Positions 7,863 through 18,772 are shown, numbered from the stretch's first letter. The stretch is DNA of 41,277 nucleotides from Candidatus Micrarchaeota archaeon (GCA_027315135.1 DAHUYR010000017.1:1-41277); one strand, 5' to 3'. Numbers and translations are program-made. The notes: generated by a model not told the origin, from the sequence alone.

Positions 7863-8216
7863 ATGTATTCAGTCTATCTCGCGCTTTTAGTATTCATGCT
7901 GTTCGCGCTGGTAGTACCATTTGTCATGATATTCAGCTCTATTATCATAAGGAACAGGAAAAAATCTAACAGGGTAAGAAATGCTTCCTTCGAGAGCGCT
8001 GAGGCAAGCGTCGGGTCAAGGATAAGCATAATGAACGAATACATGCACTATTTCTCAGTATTCGTTGCGTTTGATATACTCATAGCAATAATACTGACAT
8101 GGACATACTCTGCAAGCCTGCTATCCAGCACTACGGACATGCTGATACTGATGCTGCCCGTTGCTGGTTTCATAATGGTCGTTATCACGCTTGCCATGGC
8201 AAAGTTTACGAAGTGA
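7863..8216 (+). CDS. nuoA: Complex I-like subunit A
   Basis: Three TMs, FESAE loop, FVAFDI; first gene of the operon. Confidence 0.88.
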   Translation: MYSVYLALLVFMLFALVVPFVMIFSSIIIRNRKKSNRVRNASFESAEASVGSRISIMNEYMHYFSVFVAFDILIAIILTWTYSASLLSSTTDMLILMLPVAGFIMVVITLAMAKFTK

Positions 8217-8220
8217 ATTG

Positions 8221-8793
8221 ATGACAGAAGAATATACTGAAGAGGAATTTAAGATTGCAAAAAAAGAGATGGACCAGCTGGTCTACGAATCTCTTAAAGA
8301 CAAGGATGTAAAGCCGAATGTGATGTTTGCAAAGACATCTGAAATATTAAGAGCTCTGAAACTCTCAAAAGGAATGATAAAATGGGCCAGGGTAAACTCC
8401 CTATGGCCGATGCAGTTCGGGCTTGCATGCTGCGCTATAGAACTCATGGGCTTCGGCTCAGCGCGGATAGATGCCGAACGTAAGGGATACCTACTTTTCA
8501 GAGGCACGCCCAGGCAGGCTGACGTGATGGTTGTAGCAGGATGGGTAACAAAATCAGCCGTTCCAGAGATAAAAAGACTCTATGAACAGATGACTGAGCC
8601 GAGATATGTGGTTGCATTCGGGGAGTGTGCAACATGCGGAGGTCCATGGTTTGAAAGCTACAACATAGTGCGTGGAATAGACCAGGTCCTCCCTGTAGAC
8701 GTATATGTTGCAGGATGCCCTCCAAAGCCAGAAAACCTTTTCGAGGCACTGATGAAACTACAAGCTAAAATAAGTGGTAAGATTGAAGATTAA
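8221..8793 (+). CDS. nuoB: Complex I-like subunit B (Fe-S cluster N2)
   Basis: FGLACCAIEL, PRQADVMVVAG, GECATCGG, VAGCPPKPE. Confidence 0.96.
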   Translation: MTEEYTEEEFKIAKKEMDQLVYESLKDKDVKPNVMFAKTSEILRALKLSKGMIKWARVNSLWPMQFGLACCAIELMGFGSARIDAERKGYLLFRGTPRQADVMVVAGWVTKSAVPEIKRLYEQMTEPRYVVAFGECATCGGPWFESYNIVRGIDQVLPVDVYVAGCPPKPENLFEALMKLQAKISGKIED

Positions 8794-9148
8794 AAGAGAA
8801 GAATTACTCCAGAAAGTAAGCGAGATGAAGACTGCAGGCTATTCGTATCTGGTAAAGATAACTGCTGTAGATTATGTGGATCATGTTACTGCGCTGTACT
8901 TCCTGAGAGACATAGACAAGCGAAAGGATGAGATACTGGAAGTAGAACTAATGCCTGCGGACTTGTGGGTCCCAACAATAATGAAGGACTATACGTCTGC
9001 AGATTGGTATGAGCGCGAGATGTCAGAGATGTTTGACATAAGTATAAAGGGAAGGAAGGCTTCACGGTTGCTTCTTGAGAAATGGGACGGGCTAAGCGGT
9101 CCGCTAAGAAAGAGCTTTGCATGGGGAGAGGATTACAAATCAATGTGA
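8774..9148 (+). CDS. nuoC: Complex I-like subunit C
   Basis: ITAVDY, SADWYEREMSEMFDI, PLRKSF. Confidence 0.92.
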   Translation: MVRLKIKREELLQKVSEMKTAGYSYLVKITAVDYVDHVTALYFLRDIDKRKDEILEVELMPADLWVPTIMKDYTSADWYEREMSEMFDISIKGRKASRLLLEKWDGLSGPLRKSFAWGEDYKSM

Positions 9149-9152
9149 GTCA

Positions 9153-10247
9153 ATGTCGATAACAAGGATTAATATAGGCCCTATACATCCGAGTACACAC
9201 GGAGTGATGCGCCTTGTCGCAGATATTGACGGGGATACTATAGAACGGATAGAGCCACACATAGGATTCCTCCACAGAGGGGTGGAAAAACTTACCGAGA
9301 CAAGGATGTATATGCAGAATCCTCCATACATGGAGAAGCTTGACTATCTGGCTCCAATGTCCTACGATGAAGCTTACGTGGCAGCTGTCGAGCAGGCGAT
9401 GGGCATAGAGGTAAAGGAGCGCGCAATGTACATCCGCGTAATACTATTAGAGCTGCAGAGAATCGCCAGCCATTTATTCTTTATAGGCACTATAGGAAAT
9501 GACTTGGGACAGATGTTCACATTGTTCATGTGGGCATACATGGACAGAGATAAGGTACTCGATCTGCTGCAGGAAGCAACAGGAAGCAGGATGTTCTATG
9601 TCAACATGCGGCTGGGCGGACTTATAAGCGATCTACCACCGGATTTTGAGGAAAGAGCCCTCAACACGCTTGACTATATAGAAAAAAGGGTACGGGAATA
9701 TGAATTATTCATAGAAAAGAACCCTGTATTCAAAGAGAGGATGAAGAACATTGGCATACTTACTCCTGAGAAGGCGATTGATTTGGGGGTAACTGGCCCT
9801 GTACTGAGGGCCTCAGGAGTGCAGTATGATGTAAGGAAGAACCTTCCATATTACGTATATGACAAATTGCATTTTGAGACAAAGATACTCACCAGAGGCG
9901 ATAACTTCTCAAGATACAAGGTAAGGCTGCTGGAGATGCGTGAAAGCATACGCCTGATAAAAACGGCATTCAAGACCATGCCTACTGGCGATGCGATAGG
10001 AATGCCTGTAAAGTTAAGAAGTCCTCCAACGAAGAACAAGATATCTATAGTGAGCAGGGAGGCGCCGAAGGGGGAGGTGATGATGTATCTGGTTGCAGAT
10101 GACCAGAAACCATACAGGCTCTCTATAAGGTCTCCAAACTTCATAAATCTGACGGCGATAACGCATCTTGCAAAGGGTCTAAGAATGGCAGACCTGTTCG
10201 CGACTCTAGGGACTTTGGATTTGGTGATGGGTTGTGTTGATAGATAA
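9153..10247 (+). CDS. nuoD: Complex I-like subunit D
   Basis: IGPIHPSTHGVMRL, GFLHRGVEK, ELQRIASH, GVTGPVLRASG, C-terminal VDR; no NiFe CxxC motifs. Confidence 0.96.
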   Translation: MSITRINIGPIHPSTHGVMRLVADIDGDTIERIEPHIGFLHRGVEKLTETRMYMQNPPYMEKLDYLAPMSYDEAYVAAVEQAMGIEVKERAMYIRVILLELQRIASHLFFIGTIGNDLGQMFTLFMWAYMDRDKVLDLLQEATGSRMFYVNMRLGGLISDLPPDFEERALNTLDYIEKRVREYELFIEKNPVFKERMKNIGILTPEKAIDLGVTGPVLRASGVQYDVRKNLPYYVYDKLHFETKILTRGDNFSRYKVRLLEMRESIRLIKTAFKTMPTGDAIGMPVKLRSPPTKNKISIVSREAPKGEVMMYLVADDQKPYRLSIRSPNFINLTAITHLAKGLRMADLFATLGTLDLVMGCVDR

Positions 10248-11241
10248 CATAATACAATTATTCAATGGCATGCTGCAATCAGGCAATATACTATACAACG
10301 TAGTGGCTCTGCTAATCTATGCTATACTTATCTTCTTCATGCTTGCGGTTTTCGGATAGATGTTCGGATGGATAGAAAGAAAGATAATTGCAAAAGCGCA
10401 GTACAGACACGGGCCAACCTATGTCGGAAAGTACGGAATATTGCAGAACTTTGCGGATCTGGTGAAGCTTTTTTCAAAAGCAAGCCTTGACCTAGACAAT
10501 GCTGATTCTATACTATATGGGACTGCACTTCCAATACTGATATCCATCACTATATTTACTGTTCTGCTGTTGCCAATATTTCCAAGCCTACAGGCTACTA
10601 ATATCGGTTTTGGTCTCCTACTCGTCTTTGTAGTGATCGCATTTATGCCGATAATGATATTCCTTTCTGGTTTTGCAAGCGGCAACAAGTTTGCAGACAT
10701 CTCCGCTCAAAGGTCCATACTGATGCTGCTCAGCTACGAAATACCATTGATGCTTGTCATAGCTGCCATAGGCCTTATATCAAAAGGATACAATCTGCAG
10801 AACATAATCGCAATGCAGTCAAACGCGTATTACATAGTGCTAATGCCAATCGGCTTCTTCATATTCTTCATAGCGATGCTCGCGGAGATAGAAAGGCCTC
10901 CATTTGACCTTATGGAAGCAGACTCAGAGCTAATAGCAGGATGGATAACTGACATGAGCCCGGCATACTATGCGCTTGTGCTCTTCCTGGATTACTCAAA
11001 GGTATTCATGTCAAGCTTGCTGATATCTATACTGTTCTTGGGAGGATGGCTGGGACCGGCGCCAATACCAGGAGTGGTATGGCTCATAATAAAGGCAATA
11101 ATAATAGCAGTAATAGCTGTGATAATAAGGGCCACAACCTTCCGTATGAGGATAGACAGGATCCTGCGCATGGGGTGGCTTATCCTGATACCTCTTTCAT
11201 TAATAAATCTTATAATAACATATATACTGTTTGTTGGTTGA
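10237..11241 (+). CDS. nuoH: Complex I-like subunit H with an in-frame TAG at 10357-10359
   Basis: WIERKIIAKAQYRHGP, GILQNFADLVKL, AEIERPPFDLMEADSEL; the frame stays open upstream of the TAG and encodes the hydrophobic first TM (start GTG 10234/TTG 10237 after GGTGA, or ATG 10270). Confidence 0.88.
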
Positions 11242-11246
11242 TTTGA

Positions 11247-11609
11247 ATGATATGGCCTATACTAAAGACGATGAAGACGACTATAGGCTCAAAAAGATTC
11301 ACTGTTAACTTTCCGGAAGAGCGGGAGTCAATGCCTGACAATTACAGGGGAATGCTCAGGCTTGATATGAACACATGCATAAGCTGCTCTGCCTGTGCGA
11401 TAATCTGCCCGAACAAGACGATAACCATGGTGGATGTAGTCACCGCGAAGGGCGTAAAGAAGATGCCGCAGATAGGGATAGAGAGATGCCTGTTCTGTGC
11501 GCTTTGCGAGGAGGTATGCCCTCCAAAATGCCTGACCCTGACGAAAAATTATGACTATGAAGTATACGATAAGAGGGAGTTGCTGAAGAACCCGGCAGAC
11601 CTTGAATAA
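11247..11609 (+). CDS. nuoI: Complex I-like subunit I (2x[4Fe-4S])
   Basis: CISCSACAIICP and CLFCALCEEVCP. Confidence 0.95.
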   Translation: MIWPILKTMKTTIGSKRFTVNFPEERESMPDNYRGMLRLDMNTCISCSACAIICPNKTITMVDVVTAKGVKKMPQIGIERCLFCALCEEVCPPKCLTLTKNYDYEVYDKRELLKNPADLE

Positions 11610-11618
11610 AGTGTAACT

Positions 11619-12095
11619 ATGATGGAAATAGACATACTGTATGTGCTGATAAGCGTGCTTGCTATCCTCTCTGCACTTCTTGTATTCATGTTCAAACACC
11701 TGCTGCATGCTGCTCTTGCGCTTACGGTAACATTTCTGGCAAGTGCATTCATCTTCTCGGCGATAGGGCAGAGCTTCATAGGTCTTCTGCAGATCCTGAT
11801 ATTTGTCGGTGGTCTATCTGCATACCTGATAGCAGCAGTTGCAACAGAGACAAAGCTAAAGAACATGCTGAAGCCGGCCAAATTCTTTGCAGCTACGGCT
11901 GCCCTTTCAATAGCTTTTACTGCAATCGCATTCTCTATTCCGCAGAGTGCCTACCTTCCTTCGACCTTCCAGCAGTCAGCATCAGCGACGTTCTCCCAAT
12001 ACTACGCGATATTGTTTATAATAACACTGATGCTTTTCTCAACTGCGATAGGCGGAGTGCTGATAATAAAGAAATTCAAGAGGCTGGTGGTTTAA
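11619..12095 (+). CDS. nuoJ: Complex I-like subunit J
   Basis: LLHAALAL, FIGLLQILIFVGG; position between nuoI and nuoK. Confidence 0.88.
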   Translation: MMEIDILYVLISVLAILSALLVFMFKHLLHAALALTVTFLASAFIFSAIGQSFIGLLQILIFVGGLSAYLIAAVATETKLKNMLKPAKFFAATAALSIAFTAIAFSIPQSAYLPSTFQQSASATFSQYYAILFIITLMLFSTAIGGVLIIKKFKRLVV

Positions 12096-12397
12096 TGTTC
12101 CCTTACCTTATAGAGCTAGCATTCATACTGTTCGCGATAGGGCTCGCAGGGATAGCATCAGACAGGCATTTTGTCGCTCTTCTTCTTGCAGTAGAACTAA
12201 TAATGGTTGCAAGCATAATCGCACTGGTCTCGTTTTTCACATCAAGCACCTCTGCATCGGCAAGTCCGGTAATTATGTTATTATCGATATGGGCAGTAGC
12301 TGCAACAGAGATAATAGTGCTCATAACATTCTATATTTACATGAAATACAATGGAATAAGCTTCGATATAACAACTCTATCGAAGATGAAGTGGTAA
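12095..12397 (+). CDS. nuoK: Complex I-like subunit K
   Basis: LAVELIM and VAATEII conserved glutamates; three TMs. Confidence 0.9.
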   Translation: MFPYLIELAFILFAIGLAGIASDRHFVALLLAVELIMVASIIALVSFFTSSTSASASPVIMLLSIWAVAATEIIVLITFYIYMKYNGISFDITTLSKMKW

Positions 12398-12398
12398 T

Positions 12399-14174
12399 AT
12401 GCAGCCGTTATATCTTCTATTGCCATTGGCCGTTTCAATAATTATTATAGCTCTGCTCAAGAACAGGAAATTTCCCGGCATTATTGCGGTGCTTGGCAGC
12501 TTAGTCTCCCTTGCGATGATGCCTTTTGTCGCTTACGGTACCAAGTCACTGCCTTGGTTCACCGTCGGTACCCTATCATTAACCATAACAACTCTGATAA
12601 CTCCGATAAGCTATATGCTCCTTGCAGTAATACTTTTTGTATCTCCACTTGTATTCGCATATGCGACATGGTATATGGATAATCCAAGCGAACAGCGCAG
12701 GTTCTACATAGAGATGCTTGCATTCGAGTCTGCAATGCTAACATTTGCATTCAGCGGGAGCTTCATAACGTTTGCCATTGCATGGGGATTCCTAAGCCTT
12801 ACAAGCTATCTGCTAATAGGTTTCTGGAACACTAAACACGGTCCAATAGTGGCTTCGAGGAAGGCCTTGACAATGGTGCTTATAGGTGACATTGCAATAC
12901 TAGCAGCGATAGGGGTGATGGGGAGCACCTTCGGCACACTGGATTTCGCCACCATAATAAACGGTCTGTCATCAGCACCCAGAGGAGCAGTACTACTCAG
13001 TGCAGTCCTCATTGCCATAGCTGTATTCACCAAATCAGCCCAGTTCCCATTCCATGAATGGCTGATAGACGCAATGGAAGGACCTACTCCTGTATCAGCA
13101 TATCTACACTCGACAACCATGGTAAAGGCAGGAGTATTCTCGATTCTTGTACTGCTTCCACTGTTTCAATATACTGGGCTAACCTATGTGATATTAATTA
13201 TAGGTATACTTACCGCAGCGATTGCTACACTGAACGCGATGCGGGAATTCCATATAAAGAAGATAATCGCATATTCTACGATACAGGAACTTTCCCTAAT
13301 GATGGTTGCAATAGCTGCCGGAGCGGTGACTGCAGGCATATACTTCTTCTTCGTTCAGAGCTTCTACAAGGCTCTGCTGTTCTTCAGTTCAGGGTCTGCG
13401 ATGAAGGCTACTGGCGAGGAAGACATAAGAAAGGCAAACGGCCTGCACTCAAACAAACTGCTCTTCTATTCTACATTGTTCGGAGTGCTATCCCTTGCAG
13501 GCTTCATACCATTTTCAGGGTTCTTCTCGAGCATGGGGATAAGTTCATCCTTGACTGGAAATCTGCCAGTATATATCATATTGTCGGCGATAAGCTTCGG
13601 TACGAGCTTTTACATTATGAGATGGTTCCTATACATCGCAATGCCAACGACCAGTGATGAAGCAAAGATTGCATATAAAACGCAACCAAAGCGCATGATG
13701 GTTCCAATAGCAATACTTGCCATCGCGACACTTGCAGCATCCTTGCTGTTCACAAGATTCCAATCGCTGATGACAAATGGCCCATATTATACTTATGCAG
13801 TTTCAGGGATCCCGCTAAGCTTCAGCATAACTGATGCAGTATCATTCATACTCCTGATAAGCATAGCTGCAATATCTGCTTACCTGATTTATGTAAAGAA
13901 AAGAGTGGTAACCTCTTCAAAACTATCTGGTTTCGGATATACTGCTCCGGCGATGAATTCTTTCTATATGCATTTCTCATATTTCACTATGGACATAGCA
14001 GAAGGAGTCGCAGTATTTGACACATTCCTCAGTGACTTCTTCGACGGCATCGGCAGATTTGTCATAAGATCCGGCTACTTAATAAGAAGAACATCCACAG
14101 GACAGATAAACTACTATGCTGCAATATTTGTTGTTGCATTGGTGGTTCTTGCTGCATATGCATACTTGATGTGA
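12399..14174 (+). CDS. nuoL: Complex I-like antiporter-type subunit L
   Basis: SYLLIGFW, KSAQFPFHEWLIDAMEGPTPVSAYLHSTTMVKAG, IKKIIAYST, C-terminal lateral helix ending STGQINYY plus final TM. Confidence 0.93.
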   Translation: MQPLYLLLPLAVSIIIIALLKNRKFPGIIAVLGSLVSLAMMPFVAYGTKSLPWFTVGTLSLTITTLITPISYMLLAVILFVSPLVFAYATWYMDNPSEQRRFYIEMLAFESAMLTFAFSGSFITFAIAWGFLSLTSYLLIGFWNTKHGPIVASRKALTMVLIGDIAILAAIGVMGSTFGTLDFATIINGLSSAPRGAVLLSAVLIAIAVFTKSAQFPFHEWLIDAMEGPTPVSAYLHSTTMVKAGVFSILVLLPLFQYTGLTYVILIIGILTAAIATLNAMREFHIKKIIAYSTIQELSLMMVAIAAGAVTAGIYFFFVQSFYKALLFFSSGSAMKATGEEDIRKANGLHSNKLLFYSTLFGVLSLAGFIPFSGFFSSMGISSSLTGNLPVYIILSAISFGTSFYIMRWFLYIAMPTTSDEAKIAYKTQPKRMMVPIAILAIATLAASLLFTRFQSLMTNGPYYTYAVSGIPLSFSITDAVSFILLISIAAISAYLIYVKKRVVTSSKLSGFGYTAPAMNSFYMHFSYFTMDIAEGVAVFDTFLSDFFDGIGRFVIRSGYLIRRTSTGQINYYAAIFVVALVVLAAYAYLM

Positions 14175-14180
14175 ATAACC

Positions 14181-15563
14181 ATGCAATACTACCAACTAAT
14201 CTCTTTCCTGCTTCCCGTAATCCTTGTAGTTGGAAATATGTTCCTGCGACTGCTAAACAACAAAAAGACACAGCTCCTGTTCAACATAATCCTGCTTGCC
14301 ACGACTGCGGCATATGCGATATTTGGCGCAATAACCGGATATAACTTTGCAGTGCTAAACACTTACCTTATAAATCCATATTCGCTCTTCTTTACAATCC
14401 TGTTCGCAATAGGCATGATGCTTGTGAATGCACTTGCATTCACTTATTCTGAAGATTACTGCGATTTTGCCCTGATAAGCAGCTTCGCATTTTTGGGAAT
14501 GCTGCTCGTAGCAGCTTCAACCTCTATAATAACGATATTTCTAGGGCTTGAACTTGCAAGCATACCATCAGTCTTCATAATAATGCTATCAAAGAAAGGA
14601 AGCATAGAGTCGGCTGCAAAATTCTTCATAATGGCGTCAATATCAATAGCTGTTTTCTCATTTGCGGCTGTTCTGCTGTATGGAAGCACAGGCAGCTTTG
14701 CCCTGACAAATTACTCCTCGTCAACGCTGGTGACATTTGCGGCCGTATTGTTCATAGCATCGCTGGGCATGGACGCATCGATATTCCCATTCAACGTGCT
14801 TATACCTGACGTGTACCAAGGAGCATCTGCTTATGCCACATCTATGCTCGGAGGGATAAACAAAAAAATGGGCTTTGCAGCTCTGATACAGATTATGATA
14901 CTTGTATTCATAACAAATTCTCAGGCATTCTTGCTACTTATCGTACTTGCAGTGCTTACAATGTTCTACGGTAACATAACTGCGATACTGCAAAAGGATA
15001 TGAAACGCATGCTTGCATATTCATCAATCTCCCAGGCAGGATACATACTCATAGGGATAGTGGTTTCAACATCAGCAGGAATCGCTGCAAGCTTGTTCCA
15101 GATATTTGCTCACATGTTCATGTTTATAGGCACACTGGCAATAATTGCATGGCTGGAGAGGATGCACAGGTACAAGATAGATGATATTATAGGGTTGCAT
15201 GAGGATAACAAGTTTGCGGCGTTTGCGCTGAGCCTGATGCTTCTATCTATGATAGGCCTTCCGTTCACCACCGGCTTCGTAGGTAAGTTCCTAATATTCC
15301 TAAGCGCCGTCAGCGCAGGAATGGCATGGCTGGCGATAATAGGCATAATAAACAGCGTGATATCAGTTTTCTATTATGCAAAGGTGATAATAGCTGCTTA
15401 TACGTCTAAAGCTGTGCCGAAGAAAGCAAGCATGGACAGGTATACTACGGCAGTGATAGTAGTATGCATTGCAGCTACTCTGCTTTTTGGGATATACCCA
15501 CAACCGATAATAACAATTGCCAACAATGCAGCAGCGTACCTACTGTCTGTACCCAAAATCTAA
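14181..15563 (+). CDS. nuoN: Complex I-like antiporter-type subunit N
   Basis: LGLELASI, ESAAKFFI, PDVYQGA, KRMLAYSSISQAGY, GLPFTTGFVGKF, NSVISVFYY are NuoN-specific. Confidence 0.92.
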   Translation: MQYYQLISFLLPVILVVGNMFLRLLNNKKTQLLFNIILLATTAAYAIFGAITGYNFAVLNTYLINPYSLFFTILFAIGMMLVNALAFTYSEDYCDFALISSFAFLGMLLVAASTSIITIFLGLELASIPSVFIIMLSKKGSIESAAKFFIMASISIAVFSFAAVLLYGSTGSFALTNYSSSTLVTFAAVLFIASLGMDASIFPFNVLIPDVYQGASAYATSMLGGINKKMGFAALIQIMILVFITNSQAFLLLIVLAVLTMFYGNITAILQKDMKRMLAYSSISQAGYILIGIVVSTSAGIAASLFQIFAHMFMFIGTLAIIAWLERMHRYKIDDIIGLHEDNKFAAFALSLMLLSMIGLPFTTGFVGKFLIFLSAVSAGMAWLAIIGIINSVISVFYYAKVIIAAYTSKAVPKKASMDRYTTAVIVVCIAATLLFGIYPQPIITIANNAAAYLLSVPKI

Positions 15564-17119: not shown

Positions 17120-17512
17120 ATGGAATACAAACATAACAGAACAAGTGTAACAATGGTAAACTACCACATAGTATTCTGTCCAAAATACAGAAGAAAGTTA
17201 TTGGTAGGAGACATTAAGAAAAGACTCGAAGAAATCATGTTTGATGTCGCACTTGAAAACGGATGGGAAATTATTTCAAAAGAAGTCATGCCAGACCATG
17301 TCCATCTCTTCATTTCTGCTGACGTAAGGTCAAGACCAGAAATAGTAGTCAAGAGATTCAAGGGCAGAAGTTCAAGATATTTAAGGAATGAATTCCCAGA
17401 ACTCCTAAAGATGCCTACTCTTTGGACTCGTTCGTACTTCCTTTCAACAGCAGGAAACGTAAGTGCTTCAACGATAAAGAAATATATAGAACAACAATGG
17501 GATAAGGTATGA
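17120..17512 (+). CDS. tnpA: IS200/IS605 Y1 (HUH) transposase
   Basis: YHIVFCPKYRRK, MPDHVHLF (HUH), LWTRSYF, IKKYIEQQ (catalytic Tyr). Confidence 0.97.
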   Translation: MEYKHNRTSVTMVNYHIVFCPKYRRKLLVGDIKKRLEEIMFDVALENGWEIISKEVMPDHVHLFISADVRSRPEIVVKRFKGRSSRYLRNEFPELLKMPTLWTRSYFLSTAGNVSASTIKKYIEQQWDKV

Positions 17513-17748
17513 ATAGAAAATTGGCTTTAGTGCTCAGTATAATCTCAATACTCTTAGGCTTGACATTCTCTATAAGTAGTACTGTCTCTTATTATGGTAG
17601 AATGTGTTCCTGCCCAGCGGAAATCATAGGAACACCTCCAATACCGTGCTGCACTGACCCCTCTGCAATCCTTCTTCTATCATTAGGAATAATTCTTGTA
17701 GTTATAGGTCTAATTGCATTCATTAAACTCATACCAAATAAAAAATGA
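17509..17748 (+). CDS. 79-aa two-TM cargo protein with Cys-rich loop
   Basis: ATGA overlap with the tnpA stop; two hydrophobic helices flanking RMCSCPAEIIGTPPIPCCTDP; positive-inside termini. Confidence 0.8.
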   Translation: MNRKLALVLSIISILLGLTFSISSTVSYYGRMCSCPAEIIGTPPIPCCTDPSAILLLSLGIILVVIGLIAFIKLIPNKK

Positions 17749-17752
17749 TTCT

Positions 17753-18772
17753 ATGATTCTAACCTTCAAGATAAAACACAACAGGGACTTCTCCTCAGAG
17801 TTAGGAAAGGCAAAACAGATTGCCGAGTATGTTCTGACTCACAAAACAAGGTCTTCAAAGGATGTGAAACAGTTCGGTCTGAAGTCGGCAATCGCAAACC
17901 AGATACTCAGGAAGTATGGGAATAATGAGACAATAAAGAATGTCAATAGGATAAAACTGACCATTCCCTCTCAATCTGTCCATGCAGATAAGGAGAAGAG
18001 AACAATAGAAATTCCATGCCTAAAGTTCAATGTGTCATACAATTTCAGGAATGACTATGAGAAGATAAACCAGATAGAATTGGACAACGAATATGTTTAT
18101 GTCTCAGTCAATATAAAGGAAGAACCACAAATAACTCCAGAGACATGGATGGGGGTAGATAGAAACACGACAGGACATATCGCAGTAGTCGGAAACCCAG
18201 ACACAGGAAAGATTCTAAAACTTGGAAAAGAGGCTCTGCACATTCACACAAAATACAGGAATATAAGAAAGAAGATGCAGAGACAGGGGAAGTATGGAGT
18301 AGTCAAAATGATAAGGAACAGGGAGTCAAGGATAATCAAGAACATCAACCACAACATCTCAAAGGCAATAGTAGAAACTGCAAAGGAGAACAATGCAGGA
18401 ATCAAACTTGAAAAATTGGAAGGCATAAGAAAGAATAGGAAACATTTAAGGAACTTCAATTATAGTCTGCATAGCTGGTCTTTCTACCAGTTGCAGACAT
18501 TTATCGAATACAAGGCAAAATTATGTGGAATACCTCTAACCTACGTGGAGCCTAAAAACACGTCCAAGGACTGTTCAAGGTGTGGAAACGAAGGAATTAG
18601 GGATTCAAAGAAATTCGTGTGCCAGTCGTGTGGACACGTAGACCATGCCGACGCAAATGCATCGTTCAACATATCGCAGCGTCCTCCAATAGGAGAAGGC
18701 AGAAGTCAATTGCACACAGACAGGGATGTGTGCAAGGGCAGCACTGATACGCCCCAAGGTGCAACTCTATGA
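17753..18772 (+). CDS. tnpB: RNA-guided endonuclease TnpB, 339 aa
   Basis: RuvC-I WMGVDRN, RuvC-II IKLEKL, WSFYQLQTFIEYKA, zinc ribbon CSRC/CQSC, RuvC-III HADANASFNI; likely ATG 17753. Confidence 0.96.
   Translation: MILTFKIKHNRDFSSELGKAKQIAEYVLTHKTRSSKDVKQFGLKSAIANQILRKYGNNETIKNVNRIKLTIPSQSVHADKEKRTIEIPCLKFNVSYNFRNDYEKINQIELDNEYVYVSVNIKEEPQITPETWMGVDRNTTGHIAVVGNPDTGKILKLGKEALHIHTKYRNIRKKMQRQGKYGVVKMIRNRESRIIKNINHNISKAIVETAKENNAGIKLEKLEGIRKNRKHLRNFNYSLHSWSFYQLQTFIEYKAKLCGIPLTYVEPKNTSKDCSRCGNEGIRDSKKFVCQSCGHVDHADANASFNISQRPPIGEGRSQLHTDRDVCKGSTDTPQGATL

Follow-up and report, generated by a model that had tools for sequence, protein, structure and literature searches.

Complex I of Thermus and Paracoccus contains an NADH-oxidising NuoE/F/G module, and its genes lie in one operon. 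The cyanobacterial and chloroplast NDH-1 complex is a relative of complex I that has no NuoE/F/G and uses ferredoxin; the genes for its NuoM homologue (ndhD) are encoded apart from the other ndh genes, and it has extra subunits of oxygenic phototrophs as well as multiple ndhD and ndhF paralogues. Homologous NuoB/C/D/H/I-like and antiporter-like subunits are also found in the group 4 membrane-bound [NiFe] hydrogenases (Mbh, Ech, Hyc), some of which have fewer antiporter modules. An 11-subunit NADH dehydrogenase without nuoEFG was reported for Micrarchaeota, Parvarchaeota and Thermoplasmatales, and reduced ferredoxin was proposed as its donor (Chen et al. 2018, ISME J 12:756, PMC5864196, in the part consulted). 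Here, the window (the whole stretch of DNA analyzed, 41,277 nt) was found to carry a ten-gene nuo operon without nuoM at positions 7863-15563. The window is contig C31 of G000, the genome of a Candidatus Micrarchaeota (DPANN) archaeon. All eleven core genes (A, B, C, D, H, I, J, K, L, M and N) are present in G000, ten in the window and nuoM on contig C36. We put at about 0.9 the probability that they encode, from two loci, an ordinary respiratory complex I of 11 subunits, with three pumps and no NuoE/F/G. An enzyme lacking nuoEFG is already published for the phylum; what may be new here is the split gene arrangement, which is lineage-specific.

The subunit set A-B-C-D-H-I-J-K-L-M-N is the same as that of the enzyme of Chen et al. 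from the same phylum; the text of that paper that was compared, which did not extend to the supplementary tables, mentions neither the gene order nor a displaced nuoM. In the enzyme proposed here, the membrane arm would be made up of the usual H, A, J, K, N, M and L subunits, with the lateral helix of NuoL clamping M and N. Electrons would pass through NuoI and NuoB to the quinone site in NuoD/NuoH, and protons would be pumped. NuoM is predicted to assemble physically into the complex.

The ten-gene nuo operon of the window

G000 is a metagenome-assembled genome (MAG) of 806,683 bases in 50 contigs and is 88% complete. Gene families were assigned with Pfam and NCBIfam models at curated cutoffs. 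The order nuoA-B-C-D-H-I-J-K-L-N, given by an initial annotation made from the sequence alone, was borne out by the family matches: ten co-directional genes lie on the plus strand, as listed here (aa, amino acids; ORF, open reading frame; TM, transmembrane).

7863..8216, plus strand: nuoA, 117 aa; Pfam Oxidored_q4 32.9 bits, above cutoff; the NCBIfam NuoA match is weak
8191..8793, plus strand: nuoB, longest ORF of 200 aa from TTG; NF005012 204.7 bits against a 116-bit cutoff
8774..9148, plus strand: nuoC, 124 aa, a short form; Pfam Complex1_30kDa 72.2 bits, above cutoff
9117..10247, plus strand: nuoD; NF004739 (NuoD) 410 bits against a 360-bit cutoff
10234..10359, plus strand: 5' part of nuoH with the first TM helix, in the nuoH frame, ending at TAG 10357-10359
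10360..11241, plus strand: nuoH from the ATG right after this TAG, 293 aa; Pfam NADHdh 279.7 bits, NF004741 264.8 bits, under its 305-bit cutoff
11247..11609, plus strand: nuoI, 120 aa; TIGR01971 (NuoI) 95.1 bits, under cutoff
11619..12095, plus strand: nuoJ, 158 aa; Pfam Oxidored_q3 46.8 bits, above cutoff
12095..12397, plus strand: nuoK, 100 aa; Pfam Oxidored_q2 34.2 bits, above cutoff
12399..14174, plus strand: nuoL, 591 aa; Proton_antipo_N and Proton_antipo_M
14181..15563, plus strand: nuoN, 460 aa; best NCBIfam match TIGR01770 (NuoN) 254.1 bits, under its 332.6-bit cutoff

By reading of the translations, the likely starts of nuoB (ATG 8221) and nuoD (ATG 9153, giving 364 aa) lie downstream of the longest-ORF starts. 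The short form of nuoC has the same length in relatives. The NuoB translation contains the motifs CCAIE, GECATCGG and GCPPKP, which we take to hold the ligands of cluster N2; NuoI has two CxxCxxCxxxCP motifs and matches Fer4 families, and these motifs presumably supply the ligands of two 4Fe-4S clusters. Two membrane Glu residues are visible in NuoK (AVELIM and AATEII).

The last gene of the operon scored 254.1 bits with the NuoN model and 146 bits with the NuoM model (TIGR01972), both under the curated cutoffs; it is 83% identical to its orthologue in the same-genus genome G005, with a ratio of nonsynonymous to synonymous divergence (dN/dS) of 0.07. The spacing of 6 nt between nuoL (end 14174) and nuoN (start 14181) is as first described, and no nuoM remnant was found in the window: when the genome's own NuoM was used in tblastn against the whole window, the only matches were paralogous ones within nuoN and nuoL and two chance matches with E >4.

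An intact nuoM gene at a second locus

Three explanations had been offered for the operon without nuoM, namely a shortened two-antiporter complex, a second copy of N or L in the M slot, and a nuoM encoded elsewhere. A hidden Markov model search for NuoM across the whole genome found an intact nuoM on the minus strand of C36 (G000:C36:1209-2624), the very observation that had been named beforehand as refuting a shortened complex. The explanation by a nuoM encoded elsewhere was thus sustained, and those by a two-antiporter complex and by a second N or L were not. In particular, the genome has exactly three Proton_antipo_M (PF00361) genes, one each of L, M and N, which leaves a second N or L in the M slot unsupported. 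NDH-1, with its several ndhD and ndhF paralogues, differs in this respect from G000.

The C36 nuoM is complete, lies inside its 10.4-kb contig and encodes 471 aa; with the TIGR01972 (NuoM) model it scored 333.2 bits against a cutoff of 263.8 bits. Together, NuoL, NuoM and NuoN comprise 1522 residues. The closest solved structure matched by the C36 protein is NuoM of Paracoccus (8qby_M, 211 bits), and in the alignment of the two the charged residues TM5 Glu, TM7 Lys and TM8 Lys and the WLPDAH motif are conserved. Compared with the five same-genus copies, nuoM showed a dN of 0.094-0.157 and a dS of 1.1-1.6, and the resulting dN/dS of 0.07-0.10 is a rough ratio because dS is near saturation. The constraint is like that on nuoN (0.07) and nuoL (0.09), and nuoM is under clear purifying selection, as are these two genes.

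The lateral helix of NuoL

The number of modules can be read off the lateral helix of NuoL by its length. In the "2M" complex I, which has a fourth antiporter-like subunit in the form of a second nuoM, the extra pump accompanies an insertion of ~26 residues in this helix (Chadwick et al. 2018, via the portion of PMC9040806 consulted), and this enzyme is the precedent for such a count. Because an added module brings an insertion of this size, the loss of one would be expected to delete about as many residues. The genome described here has a single nuoM and an unchanged helix length.

The initial annotation had estimated about 70 residues between the last core TM helix and the STG motif, and the measured distance agrees: the TM helix ends at residue 499 and S-T-G occupies residues 566-568, 67 residues further on. 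NuoL aligned with Nqo12 of T. thermophilus from end to end (residues 52-584 against 58-600 of 606), with the lateral helix and the last TM helix included; Nqo12/13/14 are represented by PDB 4HE8. When the lateral helices of 21 Micrarchaeota NuoL proteins were aligned, the segment from the invariant Tyr to the invariant Gly (Y523-G568) measured 46 residues in every one, with or without nuoM in the operon; eight of these proteins come from L-M-N operons, and L-N operons are represented too. No deletion comparable to ~26 residues was present in the lateral helix among these 21 orthologues.

The AlphaFold2 model of NuoL (mean predicted local distance difference test score, pLDDT, 80.7) has a continuous helix at residues 516-567, followed by a helix at 570-590 that is the terminal TM helix. 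It superposes on the NuoL/Nqo12/ND5 chains of three-pump enzymes, with template modelling scores (TM-scores) of 0.84 and 0.83 to 4he8, and the structure of an "Fd-NDH-1L complex" (6l7o) was among its matches. NuoL thus has the full three-module length, with a helix built for two partners.

NuoD is predicted to be of the quinone-reducing type

The claim that NuoD has no NiFe ligands, and that the operon is therefore not that of a hydrogenase, was upheld. Read from ATG 9153, the whole protein has one Cys, in the C-terminal DLVMGCVDR (window 10230-10244), and none in the N-terminal GPIHPSTHG region; with a single Cys, NuoD cannot hold a four-Cys NiFe site. Compared with the group 4 [NiFe] hydrogenases, the paired CxxC ligand motifs are missing. 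Hydrogenase models matched NuoD marginally (frhA, 24.9 bits) against 410 bits for the NuoD model. NuoD retains the HPSTHG and EKLDY motifs; we take the HPSTHG and LDY residues to mark the quinone-reducing type, to which NuoD would belong by its sequence, rather than to the NiFe type.

The C-terminal Cys was also considered as a leftover hydrogenase ligand, and this was rejected: GCVDR is confined to this genus (the window and G005), and in five other genera the position is Asp, in ADVDR or GDADR.

Gene order of nuoM in related genomes

The relatives of the window locus are Candidatus Micrarchaeota MAGs. NuoM was searched for in 31 related genomes, and an orthologue was found in 29; the two genomes without NuoM also gave no match to any of L, M or N. 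Gene orders were checked by tblastn with the window proteins in 12 loci, and 37 nuoM-centred loci were compared in addition. The complete order A-B-C-D-H-I-J-K-L-M-N occurs in G007, and H-I-J-K-L-M-N in the order-level family f3 (G023, G025). The order is A-H-J-K-L-N-M in G010 and G011. M and N converge in G009; in G008, M lies ~4 kb past N on the opposite strand. M is on a separate contig from the A-B-C-D-H-I-J-K-L-N cluster in G013, G017 and G005, the last of these from the same genus as the window. Within the genus, M and L-N lie on different contigs in five of the six other genomes; the remaining one, G002, carries two copies of M and a mere fragment of a third paralogue.

Among the 37 nuoM-centred loci, six are L-M-N and two L-N-M, four have M tail-to-tail with N, one has N at a distance of ~5 kb, and in 24 the available flank contains no other nuo gene; some of these loci have short flanks or share genomes with the set of related genomes, so the counts are not independent. 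In 19 of them, the gene immediately upstream of nuoM encodes a membrane-anchored tandem AAA+ ATPase.

Family f3 was assumed as the root of a maximum-likelihood tree of 43 NuoM proteins (IQ-TREE quick search, LG+G4); the six named outgroup rows did not make up one side of any branch, one row falling on the wrong side of the best branch. All nine L-M-N rows are basal, on one side of a single branch with a Shimodaira-Hasegawa-like approximate likelihood ratio test (SH-aLRT) value of 99, and the remaining 34 of the 43 rows, with every other arrangement, group in one clade (SH-aLRT 99). The window genome falls in a 14-row subclade consisting entirely of AAA+-nuoM loci (SH-aLRT 86) and, within it, in an 8-row group (SH-aLRT 100). 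Because all displaced arrangements form one clade, nuoM left the L-N slot once and moved further afterwards, and the tree points to a single ancestral displacement in the ancestor of this clade. Read in this way, the loci make up a series of operon disassembly in reduced DPANN genomes, from L-M-N to L-N-M, an inverted M and a separate AAA+-nuoM locus. No literature linking Micrarchaeota and nuoM was found in a search that did not reach the supplementary tables of genomic papers, and the displaced-nuoM gene order, a matter of rearrangement rather than of a new machine, may be unreported.

Other peculiarities of gene order were seen in the same comparison. At G023:C9 (L024) and G025:C6 (L025), the cluster begins at nuoH, with no A, B, C or D genes within ~8 kb upstream. 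At G010:C31 (L020) and G011:C22 (L021), in two related genera, there is a membrane-arm-only cluster lacking B, C, D and I, which suggests a second kind of operon split in the family. G002 has two AAA+-nuoM loci (C2 and C22; L032 and L034) that are 84-86% identical to the nuoM of the window genome, and these are likely two strains in one bin.

An in-frame TAG in nuoH

The 112 nt that separate nuoD from the nuoH ATG are not intergenic; from ~10234 they are read in the nuoH frame and encode the first TM helix. The codon occupied by TAG in the window is Tyr, with no stop, in all ten relatives examined (TAC in G005). Contigs from four of four public runs have T at window position 10359, giving TAT, and one of these contigs differs from the window at just 2 of 694 bases; the public runs were available not as raw reads but as contigs, which carry no information on depth or minor variants, and uncovered stretches in runs X1 and X7 are uninformative. 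Since the contigs of other runs read TAT, the stop is private to this assembly; it could be a rare variant of the strain or else an error in the MAG consensus.

Reassignment of TAG was tried as an explanation and rejected: TAG serves as an ordinary stop in G000, closing 90 of 563 long frames, and TAT stands in near-identical contigs from other runs.

Points against the proposed enzyme and alternative explanations

Several observations weigh against a working three-pump complex I encoded at two loci. Most subunits score under the NCBIfam curated cutoffs, and the proteins are therefore divergent; the subunit assignments are unambiguous despite this divergence. The acidic residue in TM12 of NuoM (residue 389 of the C36 protein) is Asp, whereas the aligned residue of the Paracoccus protein (8QBY) is Glu, and this Glu was described as conserved in NuoM (PMC9271201, in the portion consulted). 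The 43 Micrarchaeota sequences all have Asp at this position, which makes it a trait of the lineage. Neither cytochrome bd nor a heme-copper oxidase (COX1) was found in G000, where, at 88% completeness, failed matches are no proof of absence, and cytochrome bd was found in none of the seven genomes of the genus. The TAG of nuoH stands directly before ATG 10360 and ends the stretch with the first TM helix; if the base is real, the enzyme of this strain could be impaired. Finally, C36 is tied to the window by binning, in a 50-contig and incomplete MAG, and by the same pattern in relatives. Were C36 mis-binned, the organism would truly have no nuoM. The small size of this contig (10.4 kb) and the two nuoM copies of G002, by which strain mixing is known to occur in such bins, would allow for this, but an AAA+-nuoM locus is present in all six other genomes of the genus, on a 252-kb contig in G005. 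Moreover, the identity of G000 to G005 is 86% for M, in line with N (83%) and L (78%), and the guanine-cytosine content of C36 (0.448, against 0.436 for the window contig) is within the range of the genome's other contigs. With these data, mis-binning is scarcely credible.

A truly shortened two-antiporter complex of L and N, with the unlinked NuoM acting elsewhere, for example with the membrane AAA+ protein, would account for the position of nuoM outside the operon, the close nuoL-nuoN spacing and the stable pairing of nuoM with a membrane AAA+ gene. It is made very unlikely by the constant 46-residue core of the NuoL helix whether or not nuoM is in the operon, by a rate of nuoM evolution as constrained as that of nuoL and nuoN, by the presence of nuoM in every related genome with L and N and in none without them, and by the intermediate genomes in which nuoM still adjoins nuoN. 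A somewhat different case is loss of the complex in this strain, with TAG a real nonsense mutation and the operon decaying, or with NuoH made in two pieces, as a first-helix peptide and a 293-aa protein restarted at the adjacent ATG. The Tyr codon of all ten relatives, the normal use of TAG as a stop in this genome and the ATG that follows at once are what such a loss would look like; the TAT of all four public runs, including the contig only 2 of 694 bases off the window, argues against it, the TAG is the sole defect seen across the ten genes, and a consensus error explains it equally well. We give this explanation a slim chance. The three-pump complex I encoded at two loci is retained, and a tempting false lead is removed: an operon without nuoM does not amount to a two-pump complex I, and a whole-genome check together with the NuoL helix length settles the question fast.

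Electron input and electron sink

The statement of the initial annotation that nuoE and nuoF are missing holds: PF01257 (NuoE) and PF01512 (NuoF) gave no matches in the 88%-complete genome, and no search was aimed at nuoG. G000 carries a gene for a 2-oxoacid:ferredoxin oxidoreductase (POR_N), and by analogy with the proposal for the nuoEFG-less enzyme (PMC5864196, in part), reduced ferredoxin may be the donor here too.

Cytochrome bd was present in 7 of the 31 genomes searched. The part of PMC5864196 consulted describes a cytochrome bd-II oxidase in many genomes, and some Micrarchaeota without it; the genus described here, with none in seven genomes, differs from the former. An SdhA/FrdA-type flavoprotein gene is carried by G000, and quinol:fumarate reduction is a possibility as the electron sink. 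How quinol is reoxidised in a genus with complex I and no detected terminal oxidase is a side question raised by these genomes.

The AAA+ gene next to nuoM

On C36, nuoM is flanked by the following genes.

G000:C36:2624-5413, minus strand: tandem AAA+ ATPase gene, 929 aa, directly upstream of nuoM
G000:C36:258-1208, plus strand: 316-aa polytopic membrane protein with no Pfam family, convergent behind nuoM

In the 929-aa protein, two AAA domains are preceded by an N-terminal part of ~350 residues that contains multiple hydrophobic segments. In G000, the stop of its gene and the start of nuoM overlap as TAATG, and nuoM is probably translationally coupled to it. The pairing extends to loci whose AAA+ protein is just 49-53% identical to that of the window genome. 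This AAA+ gene is also found in two L-M-N genomes (L019, L056), in convergent orientation just past nuoN; it was thus a neighbour of nuo genes before the rearrangement, and the pairing with nuoM may therefore be a historical accident. The gene for the 316-aa membrane protein is kept behind nuoM in 15 of the 37 loci.

The conserved adjacency would be consistent with a functional pairing, in which the AAA+ protein could insert, extract or proof-read NuoM, or share a second role with it; such a link is unlikely, and we would give it little weight. If it were true, cells could equip complex I with its middle pump or take it out as required, and the clade would be a natural system for the modular assembly of the complex I membrane arm. 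The conserved AAA+-nuoM pair is a candidate for study in Micrarchaeota co-cultures.

Other genes of the window and origin of related DNA

The other genes of the window are archaeal housekeeping genes, among them those for PriX, the CCA-adding enzyme, ribosomal protein S26e, FtsZ, an eRF1-like protein and Sua5. DNA near-identical to the window comes from runs labelled as mine drainage, soil and wastewater metagenomes. An insertion sequence (IS) of the IS200/IS605 type was observed at window positions 17120-18772, ~1.5 kb downstream of nuoN, on the side of the ancestral nuoM position, with the following parts.

17120-17512: Y1 transposase, part of the IS200/IS605-type element
17509-17748: ORF of 79 aa between the Y1 transposase and the TnpB-like gene
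17714-18772: TnpB-like gene, part of the IS200/IS605-type element

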